Virus record (IMG/VR): IMGVR_UViG_2974506496_000001
Coordinates: 207,183-271,182 of that record
DNA: 64,000 bases
DNA from: a virus
Lineage: Duplodnaviria; Caudoviricetes
Direction: 5' to 3' (one strand)
Shown in pieces: positions 683 through 63,906 of this stretch; the stretch's first letter is position 1, and the number at the start of each line of letters is the position of its first letter. The notes beneath the pieces were generated by a model. That model saw nothing but the letters and a program-made list of their open reading frames with translations, did no database searches and was not told the DNA's origin. The translations under genes were made by a program, and so were the position numbers.

Positions 683-719
683 AAAAGACCAGGGGGCTTA
701 CTCCTTGGTCTTTTATGCT
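683..719 (+). terminator. Hairpin + TATGC-type element
   Basis: aaaagaccaggggg/ctccttggtctttt stem followed by TATGCT, just after the helicase stop. Confidence 0.7.
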
Positions 720-755
720 TTCTTTCCTTTTCTTTTTGTTAAGGATACACAGCTT

Positions 756-1082
756 ATGAATGGTAACCGACCAGTAATGGTGATTGGCGGCATGGGGTTG
801 AGTCCTGCATTGATTGAGCGCTTACGGCAGTTAGACGACCTGGAGATCAAGTTGGTGGCCGATGTGGCAATCAGCGATATCCTGGAGTTTGAACCGGGTT
901 ATGCTCGCGGCTTGGTTCAGGCGATTCAGCATCAGCAACAACGTGAGTGGAATCCCTTCCGGGAAAGCTACTGGGATAACTTCATTACCCTGCGACGTAA
1001 AGAAGTCAACGGACATACCCGCATTCCTCCCAAGAAAGCCACCTGCAGCTCCCGTCGTAAGGGACGGAGGTTCAAGGGATGA
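756..1082 (+). CDS. Hypothetical protein with basic C-terminal tail
   Basis: ATG 756 preceded by AAGGA; ends SSRRKGRRFKG; ATGA overlap with next gene. Confidence 0.7.
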   Translation: MNGNRPVMVIGGMGLSPALIERLRQLDDLEIKLVADVAISDILEFEPGYARGLVQAIQHQQQREWNPFRESYWDNFITLRRKEVNGHTRIPPKKATCSSRRKGRRFKG

Positions 1083-1402
1083 GCGAGATCGATTATCGTG
1101 CATTGAAGTATTGTGTCACCAAGGTTAGTCGGCGTATCCGCGACGGGGATTCCCGTAACGCGTCACGTTGCCTCTTCCAGTATGTTGAGACGCACGCCGC
1201 ATTACAAGACATGGCCGCCATTGATCGTCTTTTAGCACAGTGCCGAGAAAATAAGGTACCCCTAAAAGAGATCAACAAAGTCTCGTTACTGCGTGCATGC
1301 TCATGTTTACGCCCCCACCTTACAGAGTATCAGTCGTGTATGGACCTGTGGCGCCAGGACATTAAAGCGGCGGGTATGGAAAACTTATTAATAGGATTGT
1401 GA
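1079..1402 (+). CDS. Hypothetical protein
   Basis: Translationally coupled ORF, 107 aa. Confidence 0.7.
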   Translation: MSEIDYRALKYCVTKVSRRIRDGDSRNASRCLFQYVETHAALQDMAAIDRLLAQCRENKVPLKEINKVSLLRACSCLRPHLTEYQSCMDLWRQDIKAAGMENLLIGL

Positions 1403-1403
1403 T

Positions 1404-1766
1404 ATGTCTGATTATTGTGCGGATATCTTTAAAGCGATCAGTTGCAAAACCCCCACCAAAGGCAGTGAACTCTACATCGATGATTTCGGTGATCTGTGGA
1501 TGTTGATTCCCAAGCTTAACCGCTTCGGTGAGCAGTCAGTGTTTCGTCAGTATGCCGGTAACCTTGCGTTGATGGCTGACCGCGGGCAGATGTATCAGGG
1601 TCAGTTATATGTGTGTGAGTTGATCCCGGGATATCACTTGGTGTTAACCAACCAAGCCGTGATGGTCAACCAATACAGCCTGGTGCAGTATGTGAAGACC
1701 CGTGCTGCGAAAGTGGAAGCGCGCTACCGTAAGAAACCCAAGCCGATGAGCCGAGCTTACGCGTAA
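1404..1766 (+). CDS. Hypothetical protein
   Basis: AGGA RBS, 120 aa, basic tail RYRKKPKP. Confidence 0.7.
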   Translation: MSDYCADIFKAISCKTPTKGSELYIDDFGDLWMLIPKLNRFGEQSVFRQYAGNLALMADRGQMYQGQLYVCELIPGYHLVLTNQAVMVNQYSLVQYVKTRAAKVEARYRKKPKPMSRAYA

Positions 1767-1796
1767 GCAACCTGACTGACAAGAAAGGATAGACCT

Positions 1797-2306
1797 ATGT
1801 TCGAATGGTTCTCTGTGTTATTGATGAAGTGGTTGACCCGAAAGGAAAAGAAACACAACAGGACAGTGCGGGTAGAACCGGTGGTGTTTGAACCGCAACT
1901 CAAACCCACCCCGCAGCCGTTGAGTAACGCGTTAAAAGAAGAAGCGCAGCAGATTCGGGACACCCTGCTGTTTGAGTCGCCGTTGAATAAATCCCGACCG
2001 ATCCCGACCAAACCCACCTTACGGGTAGTAAGACCCAGTACAAGCTCCTCACGCCCACACGGTAAGGCGAACGATGACAGCATGCTAACACATGCCTTAT
2101 TGATGCAGCAGGTGTTAGCAGACGATACAGCGCCGTCTGATCGTCATCATCGTACCCATGCCCCTCAGGATAACCACCGCCATGAAGACCGACCCTCGTA
2201 CCATTCCACGCCCACTCATCATAGCAGTTCTAGTAGTAGTCGCGATGATGATAACGGGAGTAATGATTACAGTAGCGGACCTAGTGACAGCGGTTCGTCT
2301 GATTAA
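1797..2306 (+). CDS. Hypothetical protein, hydrophobic N-terminus and Ser/Asp/His-rich disordered tail
   Basis: AAGGA RBS; starts MFEWFSVLLMKW; ends HHSSSSSSRDDDNGSNDYSSGPSDSGSSD. Confidence 0.7.
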   Translation: MFEWFSVLLMKWLTRKEKKHNRTVRVEPVVFEPQLKPTPQPLSNALKEEAQQIRDTLLFESPLNKSRPIPTKPTLRVVRPSTSSSRPHGKANDDSMLTHALLMQQVLADDTAPSDRHHRTHAPQDNHRHEDRPSYHSTPTHHSSSSSSRDDDNGSNDYSSGPSDSGSSD

Positions 2307-2345
2307 TACCCTCGATTAACCTTACGTAATAAGGAACGCCTCACC

Positions 2346-3203
2346 ATGACAGATCCCCACCCCATTCTCGCCGCAGCCATCGGAGAGCCCCAGGATGACG
2401 ATTGCTGGGATTTTCCGGGCGAGACTGTTGTTGGTCACGGCGACTTGATGTACACCAACATCCATAAGCCTCAGGCATTATGGAACGGTGTTATCCGGTC
2501 ACTGCGAAAACGTTTCCTTACTGAACCATCAATTAACCAAAAGGATACTTGTATGACCGAGCAATACAAGCCATCGCCTGACACCGGCTACCAAAACCTT
2601 TTCTGTGAGCCCGATGTTCTCAACACAAACGACCGAATTTATCCCCGCAAGAGTCTGGTAGCCTTACTGGAGAAATTCCCCTCCGATAATTTTCGTGGAA
2701 CACCCGCAGTTCGCTATCCTTTTATGCGCCGTCTGGCGGTGTTGTTTAAGATAGCGTTCTTACAGACCAGCCTTGACCAGAAAGCTTTATCCTTGAATAC
2801 ACGCCAGACCGGTAAACCACGGATCACGCAACATTCATTAACTAGTATCTGTAATTTAATGCACCAGCTGCATTATGAGCTCAGAGAGCTTCAGTATCAG
2901 AACCCCAATCCGATTGACCTGACCCGTTATGCAAGGCTGTTGAAGTGGGAAGCTGTAAAGACGGAAAAACCAGAGTGGCTTACATCCCTGGATGCAATTG
3001 AGTCACGCACCAAGTATAGCCGTCCGTTTGATGAAGATGTGGCGCATATGTACCTGAACCCCATAATGCCGATTCATAGACAAATTCAGGCGATGGAGCT
3101 TTTACCGGATTTGTTTGTGCCAACCAATCCTAAGTTCGGTAAAGCACTCACAGAACAACTCAACCGTGAAGCGCTGATTGCGCCACGCAAGCGCAGAGGT
3201 TAA
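2346..3203 (+). CDS. Hypothetical protein (possible second in-frame start at 2553)
   Basis: AAGGA RBS before both 2346 and 2553; ends APRKRRG. Confidence 0.7.
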   Translation: MTDPHPILAAAIGEPQDDDCWDFPGETVVGHGDLMYTNIHKPQALWNGVIRSLRKRFLTEPSINQKDTCMTEQYKPSPDTGYQNLFCEPDVLNTNDRIYPRKSLVALLEKFPSDNFRGTPAVRYPFMRRLAVLFKIAFLQTSLDQKALSLNTRQTGKPRITQHSLTSICNLMHQLHYELRELQYQNPNPIDLTRYARLLKWEAVKTEKPEWLTSLDAIESRTKYSRPFDEDVAHMYLNPIMPIHRQIQAMELLPDLFVPTNPKFGKALTEQLNREALIAPRKRRG

Positions 3204-3205
3204 TC

Positions 3206-4345
3206 ATGGCACTGGATCAAGAGTATTATGAAAAGGCATTGGGTGTCCTACTGACCAAAGGCTTCTCTAACCAAGAAGCTGACCAGATCGCCACCACGCT
3301 TTCGGTATATCTCCCGATGCGTTTCATCAAAGCTGGTGTATGGGCACTCATGCCTTACGACCAGCATCCGGCTGATCCCCTGGCATTTAAACACATGCGG
3401 CTACTTGACCGTATCCCTGAGTTAAAGAAACCAGTGATCCTTCAAATGCCGACTGACTTTACTTACACCACGTATGGTCAGGAGTATTGCCCTGGTGCTG
3501 ACTCGCCGGTATACACCACAGGACCCGATGGCTATACACATCATCCGGTTGGTTGGGAAAGTGGCATTACTGGCATGCCAGGCGTAATGGGTCCGGCTGG
3601 GGATGACAATATTGAAGTCAGTGATCTGACCTGTGATCACCCCCAAAGCGATTTTAGACTATCGTTACCTGCCGAATCAATGGCTAGTCAGTTTACCGTT
3701 GTCATGCGGGTTGGTGGTAAGGCTATTAAAATGACGCTGGAAGAACTCATCCAGGAAATTGGAGGTTATGACAAACTTCCTGCTTCTGCACGTGCTGCGA
3801 TTGATCGTGTCATGGAAGAGCATCGCAATGCCCCTGTAACTACTGTATCTGTGCGTACACCCTTACCAGGCGGAGTATCTCAGGATCAAGCTGACTATCT
3901 GAAACTGGGCGACCTCAGCGACATCGAAGGGATCAAACGGGCTTACCCGATCATCGACGAGAAAACAGCTGAACGGATGTCTAAGTTGCATTGTCAGCTT
4001 AATCAGCATATCGCGCGGGTTCATCGTGAGCCGAGAGACGTTGAGGTATTTGATCTGCTTGCGGGCGATCACTCTCAGCGGATATTCCAATCTCGTCATG
4101 CTAAACGTCAGTACCCAAACAGTTTGTTTGAGAAGTTCCTGCCGGATCAAGCAGACATCGATGAACCCGAGGGCATGACTGTTAAAATCAAAACTCACAG
4201 CATACGTCACTTCGGTCACGGTCTTGAAATTAGCACGCCGTTGTTTGGTCAATCCCACAAAAACCCTACGGGACCACAAACCATGCCGGGGCTTGAGAAA
4301 GGCCGTGATGGTAAACGTAAACGTAATAAGAAGGGCAGACGATGA
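3206..4345 (+). CDS. Hypothetical protein with basic tail
   Basis: GAGG RBS, 379 aa, ends GRDGKRKRNKKGRR. Confidence 0.75.
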   Translation: MALDQEYYEKALGVLLTKGFSNQEADQIATTLSVYLPMRFIKAGVWALMPYDQHPADPLAFKHMRLLDRIPELKKPVILQMPTDFTYTTYGQEYCPGADSPVYTTGPDGYTHHPVGWESGITGMPGVMGPAGDDNIEVSDLTCDHPQSDFRLSLPAESMASQFTVVMRVGGKAIKMTLEELIQEIGGYDKLPASARAAIDRVMEEHRNAPVTTVSVRTPLPGGVSQDQADYLKLGDLSDIEGIKRAYPIIDEKTAERMSKLHCQLNQHIARVHREPRDVEVFDLLAGDHSQRIFQSRHAKRQYPNSLFEKFLPDQADIDEPEGMTVKIKTHSIRHFGHGLEISTPLFGQSHKNPTGPQTMPGLEKGRDGKRKRNKKGRR

Positions 4346-5115
4346 TCGATCGCAGTTTTGAAGGTGGCTGGGAGTCTATACTGCAATGGCATGGGTTTGC
4401 TGATCGTGCTAAACAGGGGCTGTCTGAGCACTTTGTTATCGTGGATTACGGAACCCTGGCAGAGGCCGCCGCTTTTGAGCAATTGACAGCGCTGGCGGAG
4501 AAAGTGAAGTATGTCTCAGTCGAGCGAGTTAAAGCCGTTGACTTTACCCCGACGCTTGTACGTACGCTACATGAACGTGAACATGGCTGGCATTACTGTC
4601 ATGTCATGGGGCGATGTGGTTACGGCGGCCACGGGATAATGATCGGTGCTAATGGCGGCTGGACAGGCGCGCACGGCGGTGCAGGTGATGCAGGCCCGCC
4701 CTCAACACCTGATGATGGCTCGATACTATACCAGACAGATTACAGTAGTCTCGGTATCCAGGACCGAGGATTTACTACACTGCAAGACATGATGGAAAAC
4801 GCCAGCCCTTACGATTACCCTCGGGAGATTCGTATAGTAGGGGATCGGCATGACCCGGATGTCAAAGCGTTAACGCAGGCAGTGATAAAGCTTGTTGGGC
4901 GTCGAGCTATCAAAGTAGTTAACATACCGCATGCCGACATGATGTATAGACCCGGCCCGCACCGAACGTATAACCTCGCGCCGGAGAAATACCGGGAGCG
5001 ATTTGACATTGCTTATAAACAAGCATTAGAAAATCTCAACAAGGCGGCCATCCTGCCGTATGCCCGTGGACCATTGCAGTCTGTTCTGGCATCAAAGCGC
5101 AAGAAACACTTTTAA
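4342..5115 (+). CDS. Hypothetical protein with Gly-rich internal segment and basic tail
   Basis: ATGA overlap; 257 aa; ends ASKRKKHF. Confidence 0.75.
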   Translation: MIDRSFEGGWESILQWHGFADRAKQGLSEHFVIVDYGTLAEAAAFEQLTALAEKVKYVSVERVKAVDFTPTLVRTLHEREHGWHYCHVMGRCGYGGHGIMIGANGGWTGAHGGAGDAGPPSTPDDGSILYQTDYSSLGIQDRGFTTLQDMMENASPYDYPREIRIVGDRHDPDVKALTQAVIKLVGRRAIKVVNIPHADMMYRPGPHRTYNLAPEKYRERFDIAYKQALENLNKAAILPYARGPLQSVLASKRKKHF

Positions 5116-5142
5116 TCAGTTCCCCTCAACAGGAGAGTAACC

Positions 5143-5448
5143 ATGTGTAACATGCGATCGGATTGGTTTGTAGAAGACGAACCGTCCATGAAGGAAAGTG
5201 ATCCGCATTTCGACAATAAAGCAATGGATGGCTTGATGGCAAAGATCCGTGACTTTGTTAAAGAGAGTGATGCGGCGACCTATGTCCCGCAAGCCCTGTT
5301 TGGCGAAGCCGGTAAAGTTAACCTGTCCAAAGTGGCAGCAGTAACCCGTCCGGTCGATCACCTCATTACCCTGAACCCAGTGGCCAATGACGGTGATGTG
5401 TATCTGGACTTCGCGCGAGGGAAGCGGCGTGGATACAAACCCCACTGA
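5143..5448 (+). CDS. Hypothetical protein
   Basis: AGGAG RBS; ends ARGKRRGYKPH. Confidence 0.7.
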   Translation: MCNMRSDWFVEDEPSMKESDPHFDNKAMDGLMAKIRDFVKESDAATYVPQALFGEAGKVNLSKVAAVTRPVDHLITLNPVANDGDVYLDFARGKRRGYKPH

Positions 5449-5659
5449 AGTTAACATCGAGCAGGCCAATCGTTATGAGGGGTCTACCGATGATTTGGTC
5501 CAGCAAGCTAATGATCGTGGTTTTCTCCAGGGGATTCGTATCACTTCTGGCGAGGACATCGATCCAAGCATTTGGACACCTGAGAAGATCGAAAAGTTGA
5601 AAGCTGCACTTCGACATATTCGTGACTCAGAACAACGCATCAAAGGTAGCCAGGGGTAA
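5429..5659 (+). CDS. Small hypothetical protein
   Basis: GTG 5429 preceded by GAGGGA; in frame with track ORF 5387..5659. Confidence 0.5.
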   Translation: MDTNPTEVNIEQANRYEGSTDDLVQQANDRGFLQGIRITSGEDIDPSIWTPEKIEKLKAALRHIRDSEQRIKGSQG

Positions 5660-5677
5660 CACCCTGGCTTTATGCCG
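5648..5677 (+). terminator. Hairpin + TATGCCG element
   Basis: agccaggg/ccctggct stem then tTATGCCG. Confidence 0.7.
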
Positions 5678-5697
5678 GTTTAACGAGGACGTGTAAC

Positions 5698-6153
5698 ATG
5701 GAATCGAGCGGTTTGATTACGCTGGCAATGGTCTTTTTAACCTTCGTCATTGGGTTATGTTGTTGGCTGACGCGTTTCATACGCTATCACACCAACCGCT
5801 ACACCGTTGACACCAAGAAGGCGTTAAAGCAATTTGCCTGTAAGCTTGAAAGAGTACTGGATGTCCCGCAGCCGTATTCGCTGGCACAAAGCGAAATGAC
5901 AAGGCTGGATAATGAACTGAACGCTTCTCTCTTCCTCTTTGAAGAGATCACAGGGAAGATCCACGATGAAACCAGTCGACTGTACCTGGAGTCAAGTTTC
6001 ATGGTGGTGCGCGGCACTCAACACGATACCCCGATTCGTATCTGTGTGGCGAACACAATCTTCAGCCTGTCAACGACTAACCACAATCACCACAGCGTCA
6101 TGAAGGTCATCAACGACTTTAATAACCGCTTGGCTAAAATTGTAGAAAGTTAA
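5698..6153 (+). CDS. Hypothetical membrane-anchored protein
   Basis: GAGGA RBS; N-terminal hydrophobic helix LITLAMVFLTFVIGLCCWL. Confidence 0.7.
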   Translation: MESSGLITLAMVFLTFVIGLCCWLTRFIRYHTNRYTVDTKKALKQFACKLERVLDVPQPYSLAQSEMTRLDNELNASLFLFEEITGKIHDETSRLYLESSFMVVRGTQHDTPIRICVANTIFSLSTTNHNHHSVMKVINDFNNRLAKIVES

Positions 6154-6154
6154 G

Positions 6155-6190
6155 CACAGAAAAACTCAGACCTATATCACGCCCGTGATA
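6155..6190 (+). promoter_or_regulatory. Putative phage early (virion RNAP) promoter
   Basis: AGACCTATATCAC at 6168-6180; same motif recurs at 13826, 54044 and 63922; resembles the phiKZ early TATATTAC consensus. Confidence 0.6.
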
Positions 6191-6228
6191 GACCCCTCAA
6201 CCCCCATTAATCTTAAGTGAGTTCAATC

Positions 6229-6669: not shown

Positions 6670-6682
6670 AAGGAAAACAATT

Positions 6683-7384: not shown

Positions 7385-7392
7385 GTAATATC

Positions 7393-7425
7393 AGGCAGGG
7401 GGAATACTCTCTGCCTTTATTTTTT
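7393..7425 (+). terminator. Intrinsic terminator
   Basis: aggcaggggg/ctctctgcct stem followed by a T-rich tract. Confidence 0.7.
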
Positions 7426-7437
7426 GTGGTATTCTGC

Positions 7438-8067: not shown

Positions 8068-8469
8068 ATGGGTAGTGCGTACTGTAAGGTTGTGGCAATC
8101 CACAGCATCTATGTACACAGTGCAGCGATGGAAGCGGTATCCGCTAAATACAGGAGCTGTTTTCGTTTGGCGTATAACTTCGTGAATGCTACGCAGTTAG
8201 CCCAACAGCTACGGCTTGCCGTGAAGAACAGCGAAATCCTGATTGTCGATACCAGTGACTTTACTCGCCGGGCACTTAACAATCTTAATGAGCAGTTCTA
8301 CTGCATCTATCCGGGTGAGGAACAACATTCCGATATGTCAGTCAAGCATCAGCGTAACTGTCGCATGACGCCTGACTGTATTCATATCGAAATTCAAAAC
8401 CTCAGCGACTTTGAGCGCTTAAACTGGGAAGTTCGACCCGATGCAGGGTTAAGGATATCACGCCGTTAG
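8068..8469 (+). CDS. Hypothetical protein
   Basis: ATG 8068 with GAGGT RBS, in frame with track ORF 7984..8469. Confidence 0.65.
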   Translation: MGSAYCKVVAIHSIYVHSAAMEAVSAKYRSCFRLAYNFVNATQLAQQLRLAVKNSEILIVDTSDFTRRALNNLNEQFYCIYPGEEQHSDMSVKHQRNCRMTPDCIHIEIQNLSDFERLNWEVRPDAGLRISRR

Positions 8470-8471
8470 AA

Positions 8472-8523
8472 CGGCATATAGGCCCTCCGTAATGGAGGGC
8501 CTTTTATGACATCTTTTTTTTTT
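8472..8523. terminator. Bidirectional hairpin element between convergent genes
   Basis: CGGCATA + aggccctcc/ggagggcct stem + TATGAC + T10. Confidence 0.75.
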
Positions 8524-13825: not shown

Positions 13826-13850
13826 AAACCTACATTATAAGAGGGAGATA
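13826..13850 (+). promoter_or_regulatory. Putative phage early promoter
   Basis: AAACCTACATTAT copy of the recurring motif, upstream of the accessory island. Confidence 0.6.
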
Positions 13851-15386: not shown

Positions 15387-15415
15387 AGGAGAGCTTCGGC
15401 TCTCCTTTTATGCCC
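15387..15415 (+). terminator. Hairpin (UUCG loop) + TATGCC element
   Basis: aggagagc-ttcg-gctctcct-ttTATGCCC. Confidence 0.75.
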
Positions 15416-15430
15416 ATTAAGGAACATGTC

Positions 15431-16915: not shown

Positions 16916-16916
16916 T

Positions 16917-16953
16917 CGGCATATATTCTGTCTCGTTAGCGTAAGCTCGCTAA
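16917..16953 (-). terminator. CGGCATA + hairpin element (oriented for the minus strand)
   Basis: CGGCATA at 16917 and ttagcg/cgctaa stem at 16936-16953. Confidence 0.4.
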
Positions 16954-17022
16954 AAACCCTTTTAAAGTTTTGTATAACAAACTATCAACTTTGTAGAAAG
17001 AAACAAATAGGAAATTAATCTC

Positions 17023-20602: not shown

Positions 20603-20653
20603 GCATAAGGAGAGGCCTCGCGCCTCTCCTGTTTATGCCGTCTTTTTTTTTTT
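20603..20653. terminator. Bidirectional hairpin + TATGCCG element
   Basis: GCATA-aggagaggc/gcctctcct-gttTATGCCG + T run between convergent genes. Confidence 0.8.
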
Positions 20654-21677: not shown

Positions 21678-21748
21678 AACTCCACCTCAAAATAAAATCC
21701 CGTTAGCAAGGGTTCTGGTTCTCTAATACATGACTTATAGGATTTAGC

Positions 21749-21778
21749 CGGCATAACGGAGCAGGCAACGCCTACTCC
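21749..21778 (-). terminator. Hairpin + TATGCCG element on the minus strand
   Basis: CGGCATA at 21749; ggagcaggc/gcctactcc stem downstream of the Gly-rich gene. Confidence 0.7.
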
Positions 21779-22796: not shown

Positions 22797-22853
22797 GCAT
22801 CATCCTTCTAGAATGAGTACCTTGACGACCTACTCGCGTCATAGCATTCCAGC

Positions 22854-22897
22854 CGGCATAAGGGAGTGGATACCCTGACCGTAGCCAAGGTATCCAC
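22854..22897 (-). terminator. Hairpin + TATGCCG element on the minus strand
   Basis: CGGCATA at 22854; gtggatacc/ggtatccac stem after the DNA polymerase subunit gene. Confidence 0.7.
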
Positions 22898-27988: not shown

Positions 27989-29245
27989 ATGGAATCCACA
28001 TTACTTCAAACGATCAATGAAACCACGGAGTTGTGTGACTCTTTGATTTCGTTGTCACAACGTCTTGAGATGTTGGGTCCCATTGCTGCTGAATCCGTTA
28101 ACTTCGCAAAGATCCATGAATCGATTAACCTGAAGGTGGCGAAGATTGCCGCTTCGATGGAGTCGATTGAAGCTAACGGCATCAACCAGGAGGCGGTGTT
28201 AGAAATCAATACTGCCATGCCTGGTATCATTCCCAACACCATCCCTCTTAATGGATACACCAAAGCCCGCAGTCAGATGAATGTGGGGTTTGCCTTAGAG
28301 TCGTTGGAGTCAGGTAAAGCAGCAATGATCTCCGGTTCAGTAACAGGGATCGTGGCCGTGATCGTCAAACTGTTTCGTTGGGTTGTCATGACCATCAAGC
28401 AGTATGTCAAATCACGCCGTGATGCGAACCGTCTCGGTGTCTCTGTGACACAAGCACTGCAACGTGCGGGAACGATCAACGAATACCTGTTAGAACAGTT
28501 GGCAAAAACCCCAGAAGCCAAAGCCGCCCGTCCGGGCTTTGAATGGTTGGTATCGATCTGGCGTCCGCAGGCTGGGATCTTTAAGTTCAATGAAGATGCA
28601 CTGGTGCAGTGGTGGCCAGAACTCGTCAATGAACTGGAGTACGAATACAACCAGATCAGCAAGGCGTTTGACATGCTGCGTAGCGGTGGGTCGTTTGTCC
28701 CGAACATTGCGAAAGCGCATCAGTCCCCCTCCATGAAGCGTTTCTTTGAAGCCTTACCGCAAGGGACGGATCGTCAAGGGAACATCGTTGAGGTAGAGCT
28801 GGCGAAGAAGCAGTTTCAGGAGAACCCACAGCGTGCGTTGTTCCAGCTGGCTGAGCGTCTGCGCTACATGATCATGCGCGAGCCTAAATCAAAAGGTACT
28901 GACTTTGGGCAAGAGCTGATTTCAGTAGGTCGCAGTATTGAAGCCTACACCAATGTGGATCGTCTGGTGTTTGATCAGCTGAATACCTACGATACCAACA
29001 ATCGATTAGGGAAACTGGAAGAGGCGTTTGGTGCGTTGTATAAGCAAGTACAAGCCACACGCTACACTGCAGACAAAGCCCTGGTTGATGAGTTCGTGGG
29101 TTACCTGAACCGTTATTCAGAAAAGCTTAACTGTTTCGTGCAACTGATCACCATTGTGAGTTACCTGGATAGCTGTAGTTTCCAGATCCTTGACAATGTC
29201 TCCAAAGCCACCATGAAGTACGTTGATATTGCTGCCAGTAATTAA
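27989..29245 (+). CDS. Internal head protein (protease-processed)
   Basis: ASME, FALESLE sites; N-terminal architecture similar to 26513..27979. Confidence 0.7.
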   Translation: MESTLLQTINETTELCDSLISLSQRLEMLGPIAAESVNFAKIHESINLKVAKIAASMESIEANGINQEAVLEINTAMPGIIPNTIPLNGYTKARSQMNVGFALESLESGKAAMISGSVTGIVAVIVKLFRWVVMTIKQYVKSRRDANRLGVSVTQALQRAGTINEYLLEQLAKTPEAKAARPGFEWLVSIWRPQAGIFKFNEDALVQWWPELVNELEYEYNQISKAFDMLRSGGSFVPNIAKAHQSPSMKRFFEALPQGTDRQGNIVEVELAKKQFQENPQRALFQLAERLRYMIMREPKSKGTDFGQELISVGRSIEAYTNVDRLVFDQLNTYDTNNRLGKLEEAFGALYKQVQATRYTADKALVDEFVGYLNRYSEKLNCFVQLITIVSYLDSCSFQILDNVSKATMKYVDIAASN

Positions 29246-29247
29246 AT

Positions 29248-29299
29248 CGGCATAAAGGCCTGGCCTTCCTTGCGGAGGGCCAGAGCCTTGCTTATGCCG
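29248..29299. terminator. Bidirectional CGGCATA-hairpin-TATGCCG element
   Basis: Fully symmetric copy; the right-hand TATGCCG overlaps the last codons of the convergent gene. Confidence 0.8.
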
Positions 29300-32249
29300 T
29301 TAAGCTTGACTTCGCTGAGGTATGTTTCAGGAAGGTAATGGAGATGTCTTCTTTCACCGTTAAGGTTTCATCCGACGCCACATCTACCCGTTTCTTGATG
29401 GCACACCGCATGGTGTCATCTAATGCGGTCATGACTTTGATGTCACCGTTCACCCCGAGTGCTTTAAACTCGATGTCAACCACATCAGACGTTCGATACG
29501 GTTTCAGCGCATCAACCAGATCTGTTAGACCAAAGGTCGCCCGGGCAATCACAGCAGCAACCGCTGGACTCACTTTCGCTGACAGGTTGTCACGCAACGA
29601 GGTGTTCTTGTAACCGTTGTCGGTCATGTAGAAGGTTACGTCAAAACCAATCGCGGCGGAGATCTGACGAGACTCTCGTGCATTGGCAATCACATCGATC
29701 AAGCCCAGGGTTTGTTTCGGTCGTAACGACACCGTGGTCTTCTCAAGCAACTGCCGCTTCACCGTAACCATATCTTGCGTCACCCAGTCAACCAGATCAG
29801 AGATCACATCAGTGATGTATGTCTTATCCAGCGGGTTACCGGTAAAGTAGTAGACACCATCCAGACCCACCACATCGATCTCACGCACCACCACACGTTC
29901 ATTAAGCGGGATAGGGTTACCTTGCTCATCCGACTTAATGTCACCCACCCGATAACGATAGATGATGTTGTTATCAGCGTCATACATGATGTCGCCTTTG
30001 GCGTGCAGGATGATCGGTTGGTTGTTGCTGTCAAACACCAATTGGTTAGTGACCGCATCACGCTGATACACTGTCTCTGCATAGCGCCATGGTACATCGA
30101 CATCATACTTCTGATACTCGATGTCAGACACCACTGAACGTGACCGCTGATACAGATAGGTCAGGGCTTTGCCCATCACCACATCGTAGGACTGCTCCGT
30201 CACCACCACGAACTGCTGATCCAGGTAGAAACTCCCCAGCTTCTTATCACTGTCGCTGTACACCACATCGTTCGGTGATTTGGCCACCGCAATACAGTTC
30301 AGCAGGATGAAGTTCTTTTCCAGTACCGAGCGCAACTTAGACGGTGCATTACCAAACTGACCAAAGGAGGTCAGGATGATCTCGTCCTCGTTGGTGATGT
30401 CGAGATTACTGTCAATGTCAAACTGCCAGACACGTTCGCGGGTTGCTGTCCGACCGATCATCACGCCATTGAGGTAGCCGTAGTTGCTTTCCCCTTCTGG
30501 CATGAACAGTAACTGACACGCCACATCGCTGTCTGCCAGGTCTTTGTAGTAATCACCTGAACTCGTCACCACGGTTGCTCTAAAGCCATTGGTGGTTTTG
30601 GTAAAGGTAAAACTGTCCGCCACAAGTTCAACACCGATGGAGTTGTTCTCATAGCTGAATACCCGACCTGCTACAGAAGGACGATCCAGATCATAGACCC
30701 GAGTGGTAAACGCATCGTTATTCGCATCCAACACCATGTAGAAAGGTGAGAACATGAACACGTTGTTGTTGACCGTCAAGGCACGACTGTCTAATCCCGC
30801 ACCGTTGATCGTAGCCAGCTCCGCATCGGATACCATGTTGTAGATGCCGTTGACCAGCCGGTATAAGGCGGTCGGGGTGATGGTGATGCGATTGCCGTTG
30901 TCACGCACTGCGGTATTACTGACCAACTGCAACATCGATGACTGCAGGGTAATGATCCCGGTACCGGCCGGCGTGTTGATACCAGACTTGTTGGTCTGCG
31001 GATTCAGTGACCGTGTCGCATGGTAAATACGTTGCGTCACTGTGTCTTCTGATTTCAATGCCCCGTAGCCTAAATCGACCAGGGTTTGTGAGACCTGCGC
31101 TTCAGTAATCGGTAAGACCGTTTTATTGGCCGAATAGATCACCGCTTCCCGCAACGCTTCAACACTGAGACCGTTCACCCCACCGCTGACACCGCTGCTG
31201 ATCGACATGGTCTTTTCATTAAAGACGGTCAATGGGGTAGAGTACTTATCCAACACCCGATCTTCGTAATTGAAGTCACGGTAGACCGCACTGATTGAAG
31301 AAGACTGCAGCGCCAGCGTTTCGATAACCAGGTTACCTTTACTGGTGTAGACATCCGCCCGCACCTGACGACCCACTGCCAGATTGTTGGAGATGTAGAT
31401 TTCCGGTAGCACAACCTTCACTGAGTCTTCTAACACCTGGGCGACGAAGGTCAGCTTGGTGTTGTCATAGACCAGGTCATCATGGGTGACGTACGCCTCT
31501 TCCCACTCATCGGTCACATTCGCCCGCGTAAAGACGCGCAGGTAATAGAACTGATCACCTTTTAATGGATAGGTATTGCGATACCCACTCATGCTGGTAA
31601 TCTGACCGTAATAAGGCTGGGCTTTGAACTGACGTAAAGGTACCGTGATGTAGAGCAGTTCAACCCCGTTGAAGATCGCAGTGCGCCAGGTTAACTGGTT
31701 GGTTTCAACCGTCAGTAACGGGCTGGGTTGCGACACATCGTACACCACCACAAAGCCGCCATGTTTCATCACCCGGATTTCAATCGGATACTCCAGACTG
31801 AAGGTGACATCCATCACCGTGATTTCCGTGTTGCGCGGAATCACCATCTTCGAGTAGATGCTGTCGATGTCATCGCTACCACTGCTGTCGAGTTGCACCG
31901 CTCGTGCCCGAATCTCATCGGCATTGAAAATGAAGTTGGTGGTGATACGTGACGGAGTACAGAAACGGTTCTTGTAATCCTCATCACTCATGTTGCGATA
32001 CAGATCTTCATACGTCCGCGCCATCTTCGGGTAGTACGCCGTATAAAGGTCTTCATGGTTTTGCATCACCGCTGAACCGGTCAGGGCAACCAGCTCAAAA
32101 GCAAACATCGCAGGGTTGGTGGCATTCATGATATCAATCGTGCCGTCCATGTTTTGGTCTAACAGATCGAGTGTGTAGTCCATCATCAACGATGGATCAT
32201 TACGCAGGTCGATCATTTTCTGTTTACGTACGTCGATGCTGTCGCTCAT
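29292..32249 (-). CDS. Baseplate wedge-like structural protein (phiKZ gp87-like position)
   Basis: 985 aa; SGGVNGLSVEALREAVI...PITEAQ resembles the baseplate J/T4 gp6 motif; synteny. Confidence 0.6.
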   Translation of the reverse strand: MSDSIDVRKQKMIDLRNDPSLMMDYTLDLLDQNMDGTIDIMNATNPAMFAFELVALTGSAVMQNHEDLYTAYYPKMARTYEDLYRNMSDEDYKNRFCTPSRITTNFIFNADEIRARAVQLDSSGSDDIDSIYSKMVIPRNTEITVMDVTFSLEYPIEIRVMKHGGFVVVYDVSQPSPLLTVETNQLTWRTAIFNGVELLYITVPLRQFKAQPYYGQITSMSGYRNTYPLKGDQFYYLRVFTRANVTDEWEEAYVTHDDLVYDNTKLTFVAQVLEDSVKVVLPEIYISNNLAVGRQVRADVYTSKGNLVIETLALQSSSISAVYRDFNYEDRVLDKYSTPLTVFNEKTMSISSGVSGGVNGLSVEALREAVIYSANKTVLPITEAQVSQTLVDLGYGALKSEDTVTQRIYHATRSLNPQTNKSGINTPAGTGIITLQSSMLQLVSNTAVRDNGNRITITPTALYRLVNGIYNMVSDAELATINGAGLDSRALTVNNNVFMFSPFYMVLDANNDAFTTRVYDLDRPSVAGRVFSYENNSIGVELVADSFTFTKTTNGFRATVVTSSGDYYKDLADSDVACQLLFMPEGESNYGYLNGVMIGRTATRERVWQFDIDSNLDITNEDEIILTSFGQFGNAPSKLRSVLEKNFILLNCIAVAKSPNDVVYSDSDKKLGSFYLDQQFVVVTEQSYDVVMGKALTYLYQRSRSVVSDIEYQKYDVDVPWRYAETVYQRDAVTNQLVFDSNNQPIILHAKGDIMYDADNNIIYRYRVGDIKSDEQGNPIPLNERVVVREIDVVGLDGVYYFTGNPLDKTYITDVISDLVDWVTQDMVTVKRQLLEKTTVSLRPKQTLGLIDVIANARESRQISAAIGFDVTFYMTDNGYKNTSLRDNLSAKVSPAVAAVIARATFGLTDLVDALKPYRTSDVVDIEFKALGVNGDIKVMTALDDTMRCAIKKRVDVASDETLTVKEDISITFLKHTSAKSSLTA

Positions 32250-41842: not shown

Positions 41843-41876
41843 AGGGGGAGAGGGGTTTCCCTCTCCTCTTATACCG
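41843..41876 (+). terminator. Hairpin + TATACCG variant element
   Basis: ggagaggg/ccctctcc stem then tctTATACCG. Confidence 0.7.
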
Positions 41877-41893
41877 ACCAAGAAGGTGAATGC

Positions 41894-44576: not shown

Positions 44577-44613
44577 GCATAAGGAGAGGGCAAACGCCCT
44601 CTCCTCTATGCCG
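44577..44613. terminator. Bidirectional hairpin + TATGCCG element
   Basis: GCATA-aggagagggc/gccctctcct-cTATGCCG between convergent stops. Confidence 0.8.
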
Positions 44614-45315
44614 TTATGCTTGTGGTGCTTCGCCACTGCCATCAGCTGGCGTGGTTTCATCTTCACTGAACGTATTGGGAATACGAGGCAGATCACCAAT
44701 CACAGTTGCGGAGGTTACCGCGTTCTTGAAAGTCCAGTAACGCTCAAGGTACGCATTATAAGACTCCAGCAGACGCTCAACCACGTCGATCACTTCAACC
44801 GGTAAGAGTTCAACCATTTGACCGTCAACAGTACGCAGACGAAATTTGGTTTCATCGGAGGCCCCGACGCGTTTCTCACCGACCACACGCATGCCCATCA
44901 GGTTAGCGCGTTCTTCAGCAGTCATCACCACTTTATAGTCTGTGCTTTCATGAGTAAATGCAATGCCGTTGTTAAGATCATTACTGATGATCTCTTTGGC
45001 ACTTTGCAGTGACATGTCTTTACCCATTGCCAGGTTGGCTGCGAGCTCTTCTTCATTATAAGCCCGCACATCCCAGAATTGGTAATAAAGACCGTCATCA
45101 CCTTTAACCGGTGTACCTTCGGTCACCACATCGCCATCCGGTCGATCAACCATGTTGACCATGGCGTAAGGACGAGGAAGGTTCAGCAGCTTCTCAGACT
45201 CGATGGTGCTACCCCAGCTGGTCTGCATGTTGTCCTGACGGGCATCATACATGTACTTCGGGTAAGCCATATCCTCGATACGGACGAGGGGTGTAGAATT
45301 CGTTACTGTAGTCAT
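44614..45315 (-). CDS. Fibre assembly chaperone-like protein (DUF4376/Tfa-like)
   Basis: Directly downstream of the fibre gene; RPDGDVVTEGTP..DGLYYQFW and a C-terminal helical domain ending VIGDLP. Confidence 0.55.
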   Translation of the reverse strand: MTTVTNSTPLVRIEDMAYPKYMYDARQDNMQTSWGSTIESEKLLNLPRPYAMVNMVDRPDGDVVTEGTPVKGDDGLYYQFWDVRAYNEEELAANLAMGKDMSLQSAKEIISNDLNNGIAFTHESTDYKVVMTAEERANLMGMRVVGEKRVGASDETKFRLRTVDGQMVELLPVEVIDVVERLLESYNAYLERYWTFKNAVTSATVIGDLPRIPNTFSEDETTPADGSGEAPQA

Positions 45316-57205: not shown

Positions 57206-57214
57206 CTTTAAGCA

Positions 57215-57244
57215 GGAGTAAGGAAACTTACTCCGCTTATGCCA
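57215..57244 (+). terminator. Hairpin (GAAA loop) + TATGCC element
   Basis: ggagtaag-gaaa-cttactcc-gctTATGCCA. Confidence 0.7.
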
Positions 57245-57268
57245 ATTTAATTTAACCGGACGTGTATC

Positions 57269-58176: not shown

Positions 58177-58183
58177 ACTTAAT

Positions 58184-58251
58184 CGGCATAACCCCCTGAG
58201 AGAGAAGCGCAATGCTTCTCTCTCAGGGATGCCTGAATCTCTTTTTTTTTT
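58184..58251. terminator. Bidirectional CGGCATA-hairpin element
   Basis: CGGCATA; 15-bp stem ccctgagagagaagc/gcttctctctcaggg; ATGCC; T run. Confidence 0.8.
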
Positions 58252-58371
58252 AGTCTGGTTAAATATAGTGGATAGAGAATTAACTTGAATAACAAAAAAT
58301 AAAGCAAAGTAATATCAACGCCGGTAAGGGCTACAACAGTTGTTCTAATTTTCAGGCACGTAGCCTAGGAG

Positions 58372-58409
58372 AAAAAAAAGGAGGAAGCAGCTTATCCAGT
58401 TACTTCCTC
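58372..58409 (-). terminator. Intrinsic terminator of the helicase gene
   Basis: gaggaag/cttcctc stem followed by T8 on the minus strand. Confidence 0.6.
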
Positions 58410-58450
58410 AAAAACGTTATTTCTCGTCGTCCCCATTCTGGGACATAGTA

Positions 58451-59983: not shown

Positions 59984-60011
59984 TATGCCCCTCGTTATAA
60001 GGTAATTAACC

Positions 60012-60641
60012 ATGTACAATGAAAAGTTGGTAATTGTGCCAGCGCCAATCCTTCGGGCTATTCACAATGCAAAAGAAAGTGAAGCAATTTTAACGTGTCC
60101 GAAAAGAATGCTTTCCATATTATCCAGACGTGATGTCATTTTCTACTACGTGGTGAATACTCTTCTTTGTGACTATTCCTATAAAGCAGACCCAGCCAAC
60201 CCAGAACCACCATTGGTGTCGGCGCTGCGGGATCTGTTGTCACACACTAACGGCGTAATGAATGCCTTTACCTCGCCGGCGTGGGTTGCGTTTGTTGATG
60301 AGAACGACGCCGATATCCAAAGTGAGCGTCGACTGAAAGCGCGTAGTATCTATGAGTACCTGACTGGTGAACCGTATGCATGGAATTCAACAGAAGGTGA
60401 CGATTCTTTAAGCTATATCTATGACACCCAGGCGAAAGTCGTGGGAGGTGAAGCCGTTGCAGTGTTGATTAATGCTGTGAAGGAGAACGATAGTTACAAT
60501 ATCATCAGTCATCAACGTTTATTCGAACAAACCATTCTGGCGTTCACTACACTGACAGCAGACACCAAAAGCTTTGCTTCCCTTTATAAAGGCTTTTGTG
60601 AACTGGTTTACCAAGACTCGCTAATCCGACGTTTTGTGTAA
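60012..60641 (+). CDS. Conserved protein between helicase and capsid genes (phiKZ gp119-like position)
   Basis: AAGGT RBS; 209 aa; synteny. Confidence 0.65.
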   Translation: MYNEKLVIVPAPILRAIHNAKESEAILTCPKRMLSILSRRDVIFYYVVNTLLCDYSYKADPANPEPPLVSALRDLLSHTNGVMNAFTSPAWVAFVDENDADIQSERRLKARSIYEYLTGEPYAWNSTEGDDSLSYIYDTQAKVVGGEAVAVLINAVKENDSYNIISHQRLFEQTILAFTTLTADTKSFASLYKGFCELVYQDSLIRRFV

Positions 60642-60783
60642 GAATCTATGTAATAGTATGTAAATTGCCATTTCGATGGCGGCGTACTGTTATGACCGTG
60701 TGTTAGCGCGACACAACCCCCTGTTTATGTACATAGACAGGTAATATCGAAAACTTATATAAGTTATTGAAGGAAACAACGAA
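60642..60783 (+). promoter_or_regulatory. Late promoter region and structured 5' leader of the capsid gene
   Basis: Tandem TATG (phiKZ late-promoter core) at 60647 and 60657, then four inverted repeats. Confidence 0.5.
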
Positions 60784-63051
60784 ATGGCATTGAAACTTCT
60801 GCATGTAGCTAAAACCGCCGACATGCTGTCACGCATCCAATCTCAGATCAATGGCGGCCATGCATCAGGCGACGCTACCGCGGTTAAAAGCTACGGTATG
60901 GAGTCGCTTGACGGCAACACTCTGGGCGCGCAGGAAACCGCCATCAAAAATGGTATCTCTGTCATTACCGACGTGATCGCTCAGGGCACTGCATCTCAGG
61001 GCCAGAGCTACGCCGGTAACGGTCTGGAAGGTTTCTCTGATGCACAGATCCAAGCGGCATCAATCGCACTGACTATCGGTGGTGACTTCCAGGGTTACAT
61101 CGGTGCACTGAAAAACAACTCTAACCGTGCCATGTCTGCATCTGACCTGAGCCTGGTTTCCGGTAGCCGTTACGGCTCTGCTAACATGAAGCAGGGTTAC
61201 GGTACCGAAGCTTTCGAACAGGCGCAGAGCTTTGTTCCTCAGCAGAACGCAACGGTTGAATACAACCTGAAAGCGGCTAAGCAGGATGCCGTTGGTGAAG
61301 CCTTCTTCCCAACTACTACCCTGACGCCAAACGACATCGGCCTGAGCGTAACTGTGCCGGTTGACATCGTTGAACCTTTCATCAAGCACAAAGCAAATGG
61401 CGAAGTGACGGATTGGCAGCGTAAGAAGCTCATCAACGCAATGCGTGACCCGACCATTCTGCGTAACGACGCGATCAAGCTGATTCCTTATCGTCCACTG
61501 GACGGCAGCAACGACGCACAGTTCGCAGTAGGCGTGCCGAAGTTCAACGAAATTCAGGGCGGCGAAGAAGTACCAACTGGTGCACTGAAGCCTGGTATCA
61601 AAATCGGTTTCATGGGTCTGTGCTCTACTCCGTCTCTGGTTCAGGCCGGCGCGCTGGAAGCATCTGATCAGATCGACACCGGTGCTCGTCTGCAGTACAT
61701 CTGGATCGAAGTAGCTAACGCCTCTGGTACCAAAGAGCTGTTCAAGCTGCGTACTGATCACCTGGATCGTTCTACTTTCCAGAAATCTCAGGAAGGCGAT
61801 AAGTTCGAGACGTCTCTGGACTTCTCTAACATCACCATCGCGCTGAACGACCTGAACAAAACCACCGACAACACCGATTCAGCTCTGCTGGCTCCGTTGG
61901 TGACTTCTGGTCAGCAAGCGATCCTGGCGCTGGATATCAAAGGCACCATGAACCACGAGAAAGGCAGCCTGGTAGTTAACTCGCTGACTAACCCGTCTAT
62001 CATCCGTGTTTACGATACCGTGGCTAAAGAAGATGCGAACACCAAGTCTGGTGCTCTGCGTGACGCAATCGACGCTCTGACGATCACCTTCAAAGGTTAC
62101 TTCGTCCGCGCTAACCTGCGTAACAGCAACTTCCGTACCCGCGAGCAGCGTGTTGACCGCCAGACTTCCGTGTACAAGTACATGGTACAGCTGGGCGCGC
62201 CAATCACTGCTATCGCTCCAGTAACTGACGCATGGGGCCCGAAAGAGTCTATCGCAGTTGAAACCCTGAGCAACGCAACGTATGCACGTAACTCCGCAAT
62301 GGCTATCAGCCGTCTGCTGGACTACGTTGAAACCATCCGTGATGCAGGCGTGACCAACAACGGTCTGTGGCAGCGTTACGATGAGAACAGCATCGAAGGC
62401 GTTGGTAAAGCTGTAGTTGATCCATGGTACGGCGAAGGTAGCTTTGACATCTCTAAAGTTGTCAACGGTGTTAAATCTTCTCAGACCCGCGATGACGTTT
62501 CTGAAAAGATCCTGAACATCCTGCGTACCTACGCATACCGCATGAACGCCGAGTCTGGCTACAACGTTGCACTGCAGATGCTGTACAACGAAGTTCAGCC
62601 AACGCTGGTTATCGCAACCGACAACATCATCGCGCAGTACCTGATGGAAGTTGGTGACCTCCGCACAGCTGGTATCAGCTTCAAAGTGCACGTGGCCACC
62701 ACCAACAACATCGAGATGCGCGGCAAGATCATCATGACCCTGTCTCGTATGAAGTCAGGCGGTCTGGATCTGCTGACGTTCGGTATGCACCTGTGGGTGC
62801 CTGAGATCGTAGCAACTGTTAACGTAATGCGTAACGGTACCTACATCGAAGAAACCATGGTGCAGCCGCGTAACCTGCACGTAGTGGTTTGCCCAATCGT
62901 GGCGAACATCACCATCACCGGTCTGGAAGAAGCGTACACCGGCAAGATCACTGTCCCTGTTGACATCGTGAGCGAGCCTGAGTCTGCTGGCGCCCAAGAC
63001 CTGGGTGGTCTGAACACTACTCCGGCAACTACTACCAACCCTGCTGCGTAA
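60784..63051 (+). CDS. Major capsid protein (phiKZ gp120-like)
   Basis: 755 aa; propeptide with YGME, NGLE, YGTE sites; YNLKAAKQDAVGEAFFPT; VQPRNLHVVVCPI; strong codon bias; follows dnaB as in phiKZ. Confidence 0.9.
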   Translation: MALKLLHVAKTADMLSRIQSQINGGHASGDATAVKSYGMESLDGNTLGAQETAIKNGISVITDVIAQGTASQGQSYAGNGLEGFSDAQIQAASIALTIGGDFQGYIGALKNNSNRAMSASDLSLVSGSRYGSANMKQGYGTEAFEQAQSFVPQQNATVEYNLKAAKQDAVGEAFFPTTTLTPNDIGLSVTVPVDIVEPFIKHKANGEVTDWQRKKLINAMRDPTILRNDAIKLIPYRPLDGSNDAQFAVGVPKFNEIQGGEEVPTGALKPGIKIGFMGLCSTPSLVQAGALEASDQIDTGARLQYIWIEVANASGTKELFKLRTDHLDRSTFQKSQEGDKFETSLDFSNITIALNDLNKTTDNTDSALLAPLVTSGQQAILALDIKGTMNHEKGSLVVNSLTNPSIIRVYDTVAKEDANTKSGALRDAIDALTITFKGYFVRANLRNSNFRTREQRVDRQTSVYKYMVQLGAPITAIAPVTDAWGPKESIAVETLSNATYARNSAMAISRLLDYVETIRDAGVTNNGLWQRYDENSIEGVGKAVVDPWYGEGSFDISKVVNGVKSSQTRDDVSEKILNILRTYAYRMNAESGYNVALQMLYNEVQPTLVIATDNIIAQYLMEVGDLRTAGISFKVHVATTNNIEMRGKIIMTLSRMKSGGLDLLTFGMHLWVPEIVATVNVMRNGTYIEETMVQPRNLHVVVCPIVANITITGLEEAYTGKITVPVDIVSEPESAGAQDLGGLNTTPATTTNPAA

Positions 63052-63078
63052 GCACCAGGCGCGAGAGTAATCCGTAGC

Positions 63079-63118
63079 GCATAAACAGAGGAGGAGCATT
63101 GCTCCTCCTCTTATGCCG
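63079..63118 (+). terminator. Hairpin + TATGCCG element
   Basis: GCATAA..agaggaggagc/gctcctcctct-TATGCCG, no U-tract. Confidence 0.8.
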
Positions 63119-63156
63119 TGTGATTTTATAGAGGCACACACCAGGGGCGGATAGTA

Positions 63157-63870
63157 ATGCTTGAATTACTAATGATAGGAAGGAAGAAAGCAACAGGGGG
63201 TGGGACACCTGCGGATCTTGGACCAGGACCTGCCTCCATGCTTGGGTATTACGAGCGACCGGATGGCGGTAACTCAGGGTACTTCGGTACCTTTACTAAT
63301 TTTGTTTCAACAGCCGGGTTATGTCAATCTATCGGGTTAACTGCAGGTTACCAGCAAGTTGAGAATGCCACTTGGCATAAGTTTCTGTTAGATGGTAAGA
63401 TCCTCTTTATACCAACCAACTATATCGTACGTAATCTTCACTGGAACTACATTTATAATGCCGGGGCAGTATACGGGGATGACAGTTTTGGTCTTTATCA
63501 AAGCCCAACGCCAACAGCACAGAGTGCCATGCATGTGACGGTGGATGGTCGGGTTTATCGCGTGCGGTTAGTATCTATCTCAAATGGCGATCCGGCTCTG
63601 ACAGGCCAAATCGATAAAACCACCGAATGGGGTCGGTTGATGTATCCGATTGATCCAACGGTAGATGCTAGTAATACTGAAGCGGGTAAGAAATGGGGTA
63701 ACGTGGGACTGCTTTTGAGTTCAACGCAGATTCTGGCAAAGGAGACCTACGCCAGCACACCTGCTAGTAGCCTGGTTGTGGTTACGAATTCTACGACACG
63801 CTCCGCTCAATCTAAATCATCCGCACCCAGTAACTGCACCTGGCGTCCGATTCTTGAACTTGTGCAGTAA
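63157..63870 (+). CDS. phiKZ gp131-family-like tail-associated protein with MLELLM leader
   Basis: GPGP, GYFG, IGLTAG, WHKFLLDGKILF, IYNAGAVYG, YRVRL, EWGRL, terminal WRPILEL. Confidence 0.7.
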   Translation: MLELLMIGRKKATGGGTPADLGPGPASMLGYYERPDGGNSGYFGTFTNFVSTAGLCQSIGLTAGYQQVENATWHKFLLDGKILFIPTNYIVRNLHWNYIYNAGAVYGDDSFGLYQSPTPTAQSAMHVTVDGRVYRVRLVSISNGDPALTGQIDKTTEWGRLMYPIDPTVDASNTEAGKKWGNVGLLLSSTQILAKETYASTPASSLVVVTNSTTRSAQSKSSAPSNCTWRPILELVQ

Positions 63871-63875
63871 GCTCT

Positions 63876-63906
63876 AAGAGGAAGGCTCCGGCCTCCTCTT
63901 ATGCCG
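63876..63906 (+). terminator. Hairpin + TATGCCG element
   Basis: aagagga(a)ggc/gcctcctctt stem running into TATGCCG. Confidence 0.75.

Follow-up and report, generated by a model that had tools for sequence, protein, structure and literature searches.

The ends of transcripts of Pseudomonas phage phiKZ were mapped by ONT-cappable-seq (ONT, Oxford Nanopore Technologies), and 61 of the mapped terminators share a motif in which a stem-loop is followed by TTAT, with the consensus 5'-BCCYCCCCHWWDGGGRRGGBYTTATKYYGT-3' (Putzeys et al. 2024, microLife, PMC10914365). In Pseudomonas phage 201phi2-1, a motif A, present in 59 terminators, "strongly resembles" the phiKZ motif according to the authors, co-occurring flanking motifs (the A/B combination) lengthen the hairpin, and eight selected terminators, with different motifs, lowered expression of a downstream reporter in the uninfected host (PMC11512511). 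We analyzed a window of 64,000 nucleotides, which corresponds to bases 207183-271182 (the final 64 kb) of the 271,182-bp virus record IMGVR_UViG_2974506496_000001, a record with a GC content of 49.9%. Hairpins at the ends of genes in this DNA are followed by a tail, TTATGCCGnYT, that on sequence grounds is the published phiKZ terminator motif, and the sites are therefore an Erwinia-phage example of a known element. By analogy with phiKZ, they are very probably transcription terminators composed of a GC-rich RNA hairpin and then a conserved tail, U-UAUGCCG-n-Y-U, in place of a U-tract. The motif was described for phiKZ and 201phi2-1 in 2024 and is not a new kind of signal; a sharper consensus, a flipped stem and the distribution within the family are modest additions. 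A literature search for the literal sequence TTATGCCG matched only a primer in the announcement of Klebsiella phage Miami.

Judging from its homologs, the phage is a nucleus-forming-type, phiKZ-like (Chimalliviridae) Erwinia jumbo phage with its own multisubunit RNA polymerases. This assignment follows from a genome-encoded homolog of PHIKZ123, the beta-like subunit of the phiKZ non-virion RNA polymerase (nvRNAP; E 2e-48), from a major-capsid homolog, which is a 755-amino acid open reading frame (ORF) at window 60784-63051 that matches PHIKZ120 (E 9e-53), from a 985-amino acid baseplate-wedge/virion protein at 29292-32249 (minus strand) that is common to phiKZ (gp087) and 280 phiKZ-like records, and from its Erwinia relatives. 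An 8-kb piece is 98.4-99.3% identical to the Erwinia amylovora phages Desertfox, Deimos-Minion, MadMel and Rebecca, and 79% identical to Agricanvirus AH06. Genes were called with an in-house ORF and codon-usage script, whose calls agree with the AH06 annotation across a collinear 40 kb, and a small number of junctions have probably been assigned to the wrong class (for example, 8209-8328 and five "convergent" junctions that lack a hairpin).

The original prediction, made from the window, was that a hairpin followed by TATGCC(G) marks operon ends in a strand-specific manner; a genome-wide count of the motif near hairpins was suggested as a check. When hairpins are defined by stems of 6 bp or more, including at least 4 GC pairs, TATGC follows 65 of them in the genome, compared with 2-7 in five first-order Markov simulations. 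The enrichment, about tenfold or more over simulation, is positional: bare TATGCC is not enriched in the window (32 copies versus 26 ± 5 expected), and the commonest 6-mer after hairpins genome-wide is TTATGC, which has 54 of its 151 occurrences there. A logo of 55 sites aligned on TATG, in which TATGC is fixed by site selection, reads T-TATGCCG-n-Y-T, with T at position -1 in 49/55 sites, the C and G that follow TATGC in 45/55 and 44/55, and the two final pyrimidine positions in 46/55 and 49/55.

This anatomy corresponds closely to that of the phiKZ terminators. Both phages belong to the same family and have their own multisubunit polymerases, and in both a GC-rich hairpin just 3' of genes leads directly into T-TAT-G-Y-Y-G-(n)-Y/T, with bidirectional copies, preceded by CATAA, at convergent genes. 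In the Erwinia phage, as in phiKZ, the GC-rich stem-loops are intergenic and co-oriented with the gene that ends, and the phiKZ tail YTTATKYYGT follows the stem with a gap of 0-3 nt. However, the tail is sharper and GC-richer in the Erwinia phage (TTATGCCG) than in phiKZ, where it is mostly TTATGTTG or GCTG, and one variable base separates the G from the Y-T. The likeness to motif A of 201phi2-1 rests on the resemblance stated by its authors (PMC11512511); there, flanking motifs lengthen the hairpin, and the counterpart here would be the CGGCATAA and TTATGCCG flanks, although host and GC content differ.

In agreement with the predicted strand rule, the upstream gene lies on the same strand at 61 of 70 sites genome-wide, and at these co-oriented sites the median distance between stop codon and hairpin is 11 nt. 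The next gene is co-directional at 38 sites, a converging gene is faced at 23, and 8 sites form the other half of a two-sided element between co-directional genes. Convergent junctions had been predicted to carry the motif or a partial copy on both sides, and we find it at 16 of the 21 called in the genome, mostly in the two-sided form CGGCATAA-hairpin-TTATGC(C/T)G; among the called divergent junctions, it occurs at 0 of 21. Because sites are co-oriented with the ending gene, common at convergent junctions and missing from divergent ones, the pattern is that of a stop signal and not of a start signal. This orientation and the presence of the same motif at mapped phiKZ RNA 3' ends together support a signal that is strand-specific and is placed where transcription units end.

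The tail includes the four bases of the phiKZ late-promoter core, TATG at -3 to +1, which GP123 binds on the non-template strand (PMC7618050, PMC12809450; Yakunina 2015 is the source that these papers cite for the core). The original prediction therefore raised the possibility that termination is coupled to re-initiation, such that each site is a terminator-promoter module where one transcript stops and the non-virion polymerase starts the next at the G of the tail. The core is well established in phiKZ, and a same-strand gene comes next at 38 of 70 sites. However, 23 of 61 sites would direct transcription into the 3' end of a converging gene, and the 21 divergent junctions, which must contain promoters, have no site at all. 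Start codons of the next genes follow the tails at varying distances, from 24 to more than 150 nt. In phiKZ, for which 119 of the 149 published transcription start sites (TSS) were examined, 0 of these 119 come within 2 nt of the tail G at any of the 61 YTATG sites that adjoin hairpins in the range covered, whereas eight lie 6-49 nt downstream of tail sites, at separate early, middle or late elements. Known late promoters also differ from the tails in having A/T-rich flanks and no upstream hairpin. In keeping with this distinction, the region upstream of the capsid gene (window 60640-60783) contains four TATG copies, CTATGTAAT, GTATGTAAA, TTATGACC and TTTATGTACAT, whose A/T-rich flanks (as in TATGTA) and lack of a hairpin are unlike TATGCCG; these copies are candidate late promoters. 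Three promoters have been reported ahead of the phiKZ capsid gene. A late promoter lies upstream of the gene it drives and starts transcription at the G; the tails show neither feature, with starts judged from phiKZ. Given the absence of phiKZ TSS from tails, the context of the capsid-upstream TATG copies and the geometry at convergent junctions, re-initiation at the tail is unlikely, and the module as a whole seems quite improbable to us. Instead, terminators are often closely followed by a distinct promoter.

A different sequence, (A)CCTA(C/T)ATTA(C/T), is present in 17 intergenic copies genome-wide, all on the plus strand, including window 13830-13838 and 63926-63934. Each copy is preceded by A/T-rich sequence and has a plus-strand gene 36-213 nt downstream, and six copies lie 24-36 nt past a TTATGCCG terminator. 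Its similarity to the phiKZ early-promoter core TATATTAC, likewise found on one strand only, suggests that the copies are likely early promoters of the virion polymerase.

To see where RNA ends fall, we placed the published phiKZ positions (preprint supplementary Tables S3 and S4) on the full phiKZ record. A hairpin followed by YTAT is found at 45 of the 85 terminators read, and in the 21 with a TTATG tail the RNA 3' end is at tail position 6-7 in 13 cases, at position 4 in 5 and at position 2 in 3. The phiKZ ends are thus inside the tail, mostly at ...UUAUGY(Y), and the next base is often G. If the Erwinia phage behaves similarly, most of its transcripts would end 5-7 nt beyond the stem, after UUAUGC(C), and some would end after UUAU. 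Multisubunit polymerases pause at pyrimidine-then-G steps. The UUAU segment could provide a weak proximal hybrid, and G-C-C-G could supply steps of this pausing type, so that the phage polymerases, and possibly that of the host, might release RNA at the hairpin without a long U-run. At convergent junctions, a single palindromic hairpin flanked by CGGCATAA and TTATGCCG would serve both genes.

RNA ends in these positions could also arise by processing. A polymerase might read through, after which a nuclease would cut in the single-stranded UUAUG and the hairpin would protect the 3' end; alternatively, a phage protein might bind hairpin and tail for stability or for export from the phage nucleus. 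The spread of phiKZ ends across tail positions 2-7 is expected from trimming, hybrid weakness does not account for the conserved GCCG, and 3'-end sequencing does not distinguish termination from cleavage. On the other hand, the phiKZ and 201phi2-1 sites have been called intrinsic terminators, an RNA end 5-7 nt past the stem is the layout of intrinsic termination, and eight 201phi2-1 sites reduce a downstream reporter in uninfected cells. We know of no cleavage factor, and we regard a processing or stability element as unlikely.

Some of what we know nevertheless weighs against termination at these sites. Some hairpins in the genome have no tail, and the GC-rich distal part of the tail (GCCG) is not predicted by the U-tract model. 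The RNA ends are those of relatives, carried over to the sites of the Erwinia phage by analogy. Moreover, ONT 3' ends do not separate termination from processing or from trimming back to the hairpin, their resolution in phiKZ is about 2 nt according to the authors, and any terminal A residues are masked by the poly(A) tailing. Eight 201phi2-1 terminators also work with the host polymerase, so that specificity for the phage polymerases is no more than a possibility. The anatomy, enrichment, strand rule and conservation of the element are all observed in the Erwinia phage itself.

There are signs that the hairpin acts as an RNA structure, because its loops and its stability favor the sense strand. 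UUCG or GNRA loops occur in 16 of 84 YTAT-tail hairpins in the sense direction, versus 4 with the reverse complements of these loops, and at sites selected by motif, folding favors the sense over the antisense strand by a small margin (-17.3 versus -16.0 kcal/mol, Wilcoxon p = 0.008). An earlier and larger difference in stability between sense and antisense folds, obtained on hairpin-selected sites, was discounted as biased by stem selection.

The 5' arms of the stems had been described as similar to Shine-Dalgarno (SD) sequences, and they are indeed purine-rich, with a purine fraction that exceeds 0.65 in 66 of 84 hairpins and has a mean of 0.79, versus 0.37 in phiKZ. The phiKZ consensus CCYCCCC...GGGRRGG, with its pyrimidine-rich 5' arm, is therefore not what is found here: the composition is similar, but 5' CCCTCCC...GGGAGGG 3' in phiKZ is reversed to 5' GGAGAGG...CCTCTCC 3'. 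Purine-rich 5' arms are also present in pEa_SNUABM_37, 2050HW and pVa-21, and pyrimidine-rich ones in PhiPA3 and LucasX as well as in phiKZ. The spacing between the 3' arm, GGGAGGG, and the tail ATG is that of an SD sequence in phiKZ and Goslar-type phages, which raises the idea of a hidden mini-gene or sequestered ribosome-binding site, with this ATG as a start codon served by the SD-like arm. Because the polarity of the stem is flipped in the Erwinia phage, an SD in the 3' arm plus ATG is removed as a reading for this phage: its 3' arm reads CCUCUCC and the SD-like sequence is in the arm farther from the tail, yet the tail is kept. Frames that begin at the tail ATG are 3-65 codons long and show no pattern, and the sole long one (at 15409) merges with the next gene. 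We give a mini-gene almost no chance.

As originally proposed, the conserved part is the short tail and not the stem: at six junctions orthologous with AH06, tails are unchanged while stems differ. A compensatory change from A-U to G-C distinguishes the stems at 57.2 kb, and several stem changes are seen at 63.1 kb, in both cases beside an unchanged tail. At 29.25 kb, the hairpin core (29255-29289) is inverted relative to AH06 (CCTTCC-TTGC-GGAGGG versus CCCTCC-GCAA-GGAAGG), with no change in either tail or in the outer stem; the difference looks like a small DNA inversion at the palindrome. The persistence of the tail while stem polarity turns round speaks for selection on the tail in its own right.

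An inverted core, and the long DNA palindromes formed by bidirectional copies, might also be expected of an element that acts on DNA, such as a cruciform or a recombination or nuclease site, with no role in transcription. Such an element would occur equally in both orientations relative to genes, which is not seen; co-directional junctions mostly have a tail on one strand only, namely the one that follows gene direction. Loops and G-U pairs are biased toward the sense RNA, and RNA ends map at the motif in relatives. A DNA-level function is accordingly very improbable.

Canonical intrinsic (Rho-independent) terminators share with these sites a GC-rich RNA hairpin, U-rich first bases of the tail (UUAU) and an expected release 5-8 nt past the stem. 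They differ in that a U-tract directly follows the hairpin, which is not the case at most sites here, and in that the tail of the Erwinia phage is specific and conserved, with a GC-rich distal half. The observation in the original prediction that several copies lack a U-tract extends to the genome, since a run of at least five T residues is present within 25 nt in only 12 of 55 sites. Where T-runs are present in this minority, they begin after the 8-nt tail, 8-10 nt past the stem (for example, at 20634, at 8505 and on the plus side of 58184). In such cases, the CGGCATAA and TTATGCCG flanks might pair and extend the stem as far as the T-run, thereby forming a putative second, canonical terminator behind the first. 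This extended stem would match the "elongated hairpin" class of 201phi2-1.

The A and G within TATG are strictly conserved, and this leaves room for direct recognition by a polymerase. The tail could be a sequence-specific stop for the non-virion polymerase, in which the pocket under the beta lobe (GP123 in phiKZ) that binds non-template TATG at late starts would also catch TATG in the bubble during elongation, with pausing at the pyrimidine-G step that follows. The pause would let the hairpin release the RNA without a U-tract, and one sequence would mark both starts and stops, with context deciding between them (an upstream hairpin and GC-rich CCG as opposed to A/T-rich flanks). We advance this proposal tentatively and consider it rather doubtful. 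In T7 class II terminators (ATCTGTT) and poxvirus early genes (U5NU), a short specific sequence tells a viral polymerase where to stop, although these signals work without a hairpin and the poxvirus signal needs a factor.

In a weaker version of this proposal, the two phage polymerases would prefer different tails, TTATG versus TTATT, but cases are far too few to count; for instance, the G-form tail is found in 0 of the 3 mapped phiKZ terminators nearest an early promoter. In the early-promoter-rich region of phiKZ at 196-263 kb, published plus-strand terminators mostly have TTTATTT(T)CG tails, not TTATGYYG. There are thus hints that tail type differs by gene class or polymerase, in numbers too small to judge. 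For the Erwinia phage, TTATG is present in 6 of the first hairpins after 16 early-promoter-like sites, versus about half of all intergenic hairpins. Polymerase-specific tails were set aside for this phage because there is no clear difference from the intergenic background, and the phiKZ counts are too small.

A search for the same motif in related jumbo phages had been suggested, and for each of ten further phiKZ-like phages we examined 100 kb of sequence. Hairpins followed by YTAT are general among them. The G-Y-Y-G extension is limited to part of the family: it is clear in our Erwinia phage, Erwinia pEa_SNUABM_37, PhiPA3, phiKZ and Xanthomonas LucasX, and partial in Ralstonia RSF1 and Serratia 2050HW, whereas SPN3US, Vibrio pir03 and pVa-21, and Aeromonas LAh10 have TTAT and T-rich sequence instead.

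Within the window, the predicted sequence is present at all 17 sites originally listed. Hairpins of -14 to -31.5 kcal/mol end 0-3 nt, or in the case of 22854(-) 5 nt, before TATG at 15 sites. TATGCC is exact on the plus strand at 5671, 15409 (CCC), 20634, 29293, 44607, 57238 (CCA), 63112 and 63900, and at 6 of 6 minus-strand sites; variant tails occur at 714 (TATGCTT), 8505 (TATGACA) and 41870 (TATACCG).

The first plus-strand site (683-721, -19.6 kcal/mol) is 3' of a gene ending at 671 and consists of a hairpin at 683-714, the variant tail TATGCTT and T-rich sequence. At a co-directional junction, a hairpin with a GNRA loop precedes tTATGCCG after a 1-nt gap (5648-5678, plus strand, -16.7 kcal/mol). 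The window also provides an example of a separate minority class of hairpins, at 7393-7426 (plus strand), where the tail is TTATTTTTTG, that is, TTAT and then a U-tract or T-rich sequence. The convergent junction at 8471-8512 holds a bidirectional terminator, whose hairpin (8480-8502) is flanked by TATGACA and a T-run on the plus side and by TATGCCG on the minus side (-26.4 and -19.5 kcal/mol). A hairpin with a UUCG loop and the tail ttTATGCCC is at 15387-15416 (plus strand, -16.2 kcal/mol). The copy at 16916-16957 (minus strand) is doubtful, as TATGCCG is 6 nt past a weak hairpin (-7.9 kcal/mol) and antisense between two plus-strand genes; site 16917(-) may be a chance copy. At 20608-20653 (plus strand, -21.7 kcal/mol), again a convergent junction, the hairpin is followed by gttTATGCCGTC and T11, and AGCATAA upstream is a partial copy on the other strand. 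Two minus-strand sites come next, one with a hairpin and gtTATGCCG between two minus-strand genes (21748-21778, -16.1 kcal/mol) and the other with a longer imperfect hairpin, a 5-nt spacer and TATGCCG after a DNA polymerase gene named from the AH06 annotation (22853-22897, -23.5 kcal/mol).

The bidirectional terminator at 29247-29300, CGGCATAA-hairpin-TTATGCCG (-30.2 and -25.4 kcal/mol), separates a plus-strand gene ending at 29245 from the baseplate-wedge gene on the minus strand (29292-32249). The latter gene ends ...ACG GCA TAA, and its last codons and stop overlap the plus-strand tail TTATGCCG (window 29292-29300); several other convergent genes likewise end within, or right against, a hairpin-tail element. 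Between two internal-head-protein genes, the variant tail TATACCG follows a hairpin at 41843-41877 (plus strand, -22.7 kcal/mol), and this variant is kept in AH06. A plus-strand site at 44582-44614 (-21.7 kcal/mol), with cTATGCCG after the hairpin and GAGCATAA upstream, occupies a convergent junction and is identical in AH06. The hairpin at 57210-57245 (plus strand, -15.9 kcal/mol) has a GAAA loop and the tail TATGCCA. After a DnaB-like helicase gene, a long minus-strand hairpin with TATGCCG (58183-58233, -31.5 kcal/mol) has on its plus side the partial copy ATGCCTG and T10. The terminator of the major capsid gene (60784-63051) is a plus-strand hairpin with TATGCCG, no U-tract and the partial copy TATGCGC on the other strand (63087-63119, -20.3 kcal/mol). 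Finally, a hairpin and TATGCCG at 63876-63907 (plus strand, -14.1 kcal/mol) are followed 19 nt further on by the early-promoter-like CCTACATTAC.

Rfam and transfer RNA scans of the window gave no matches. Outside the window, no genes were called across two long stretches (genome positions 162755-163098 and 167724-168850), which contain hairpins followed by T-runs and possibly correspond to noncoding RNAs or to small genes that the calling missed.

In annotating this genome and its relatives, the motif serves to mark about 60 operon ends, and the element is a source of compact and strong bidirectional terminators. The 8-nt tail survives in phages of Pseudomonas, Xanthomonas and Erwinia that range in GC content from 37 to 55%, and does so despite the flip of the stem. 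Selection on the tail is not explained by the standard model of a hairpin and a U-tract, and we found no test of the tail in the literature. If a polymerase does read the tail itself, it would represent a sequence-specific stop signal used by the unusual sigma-less polymerases of these phages.

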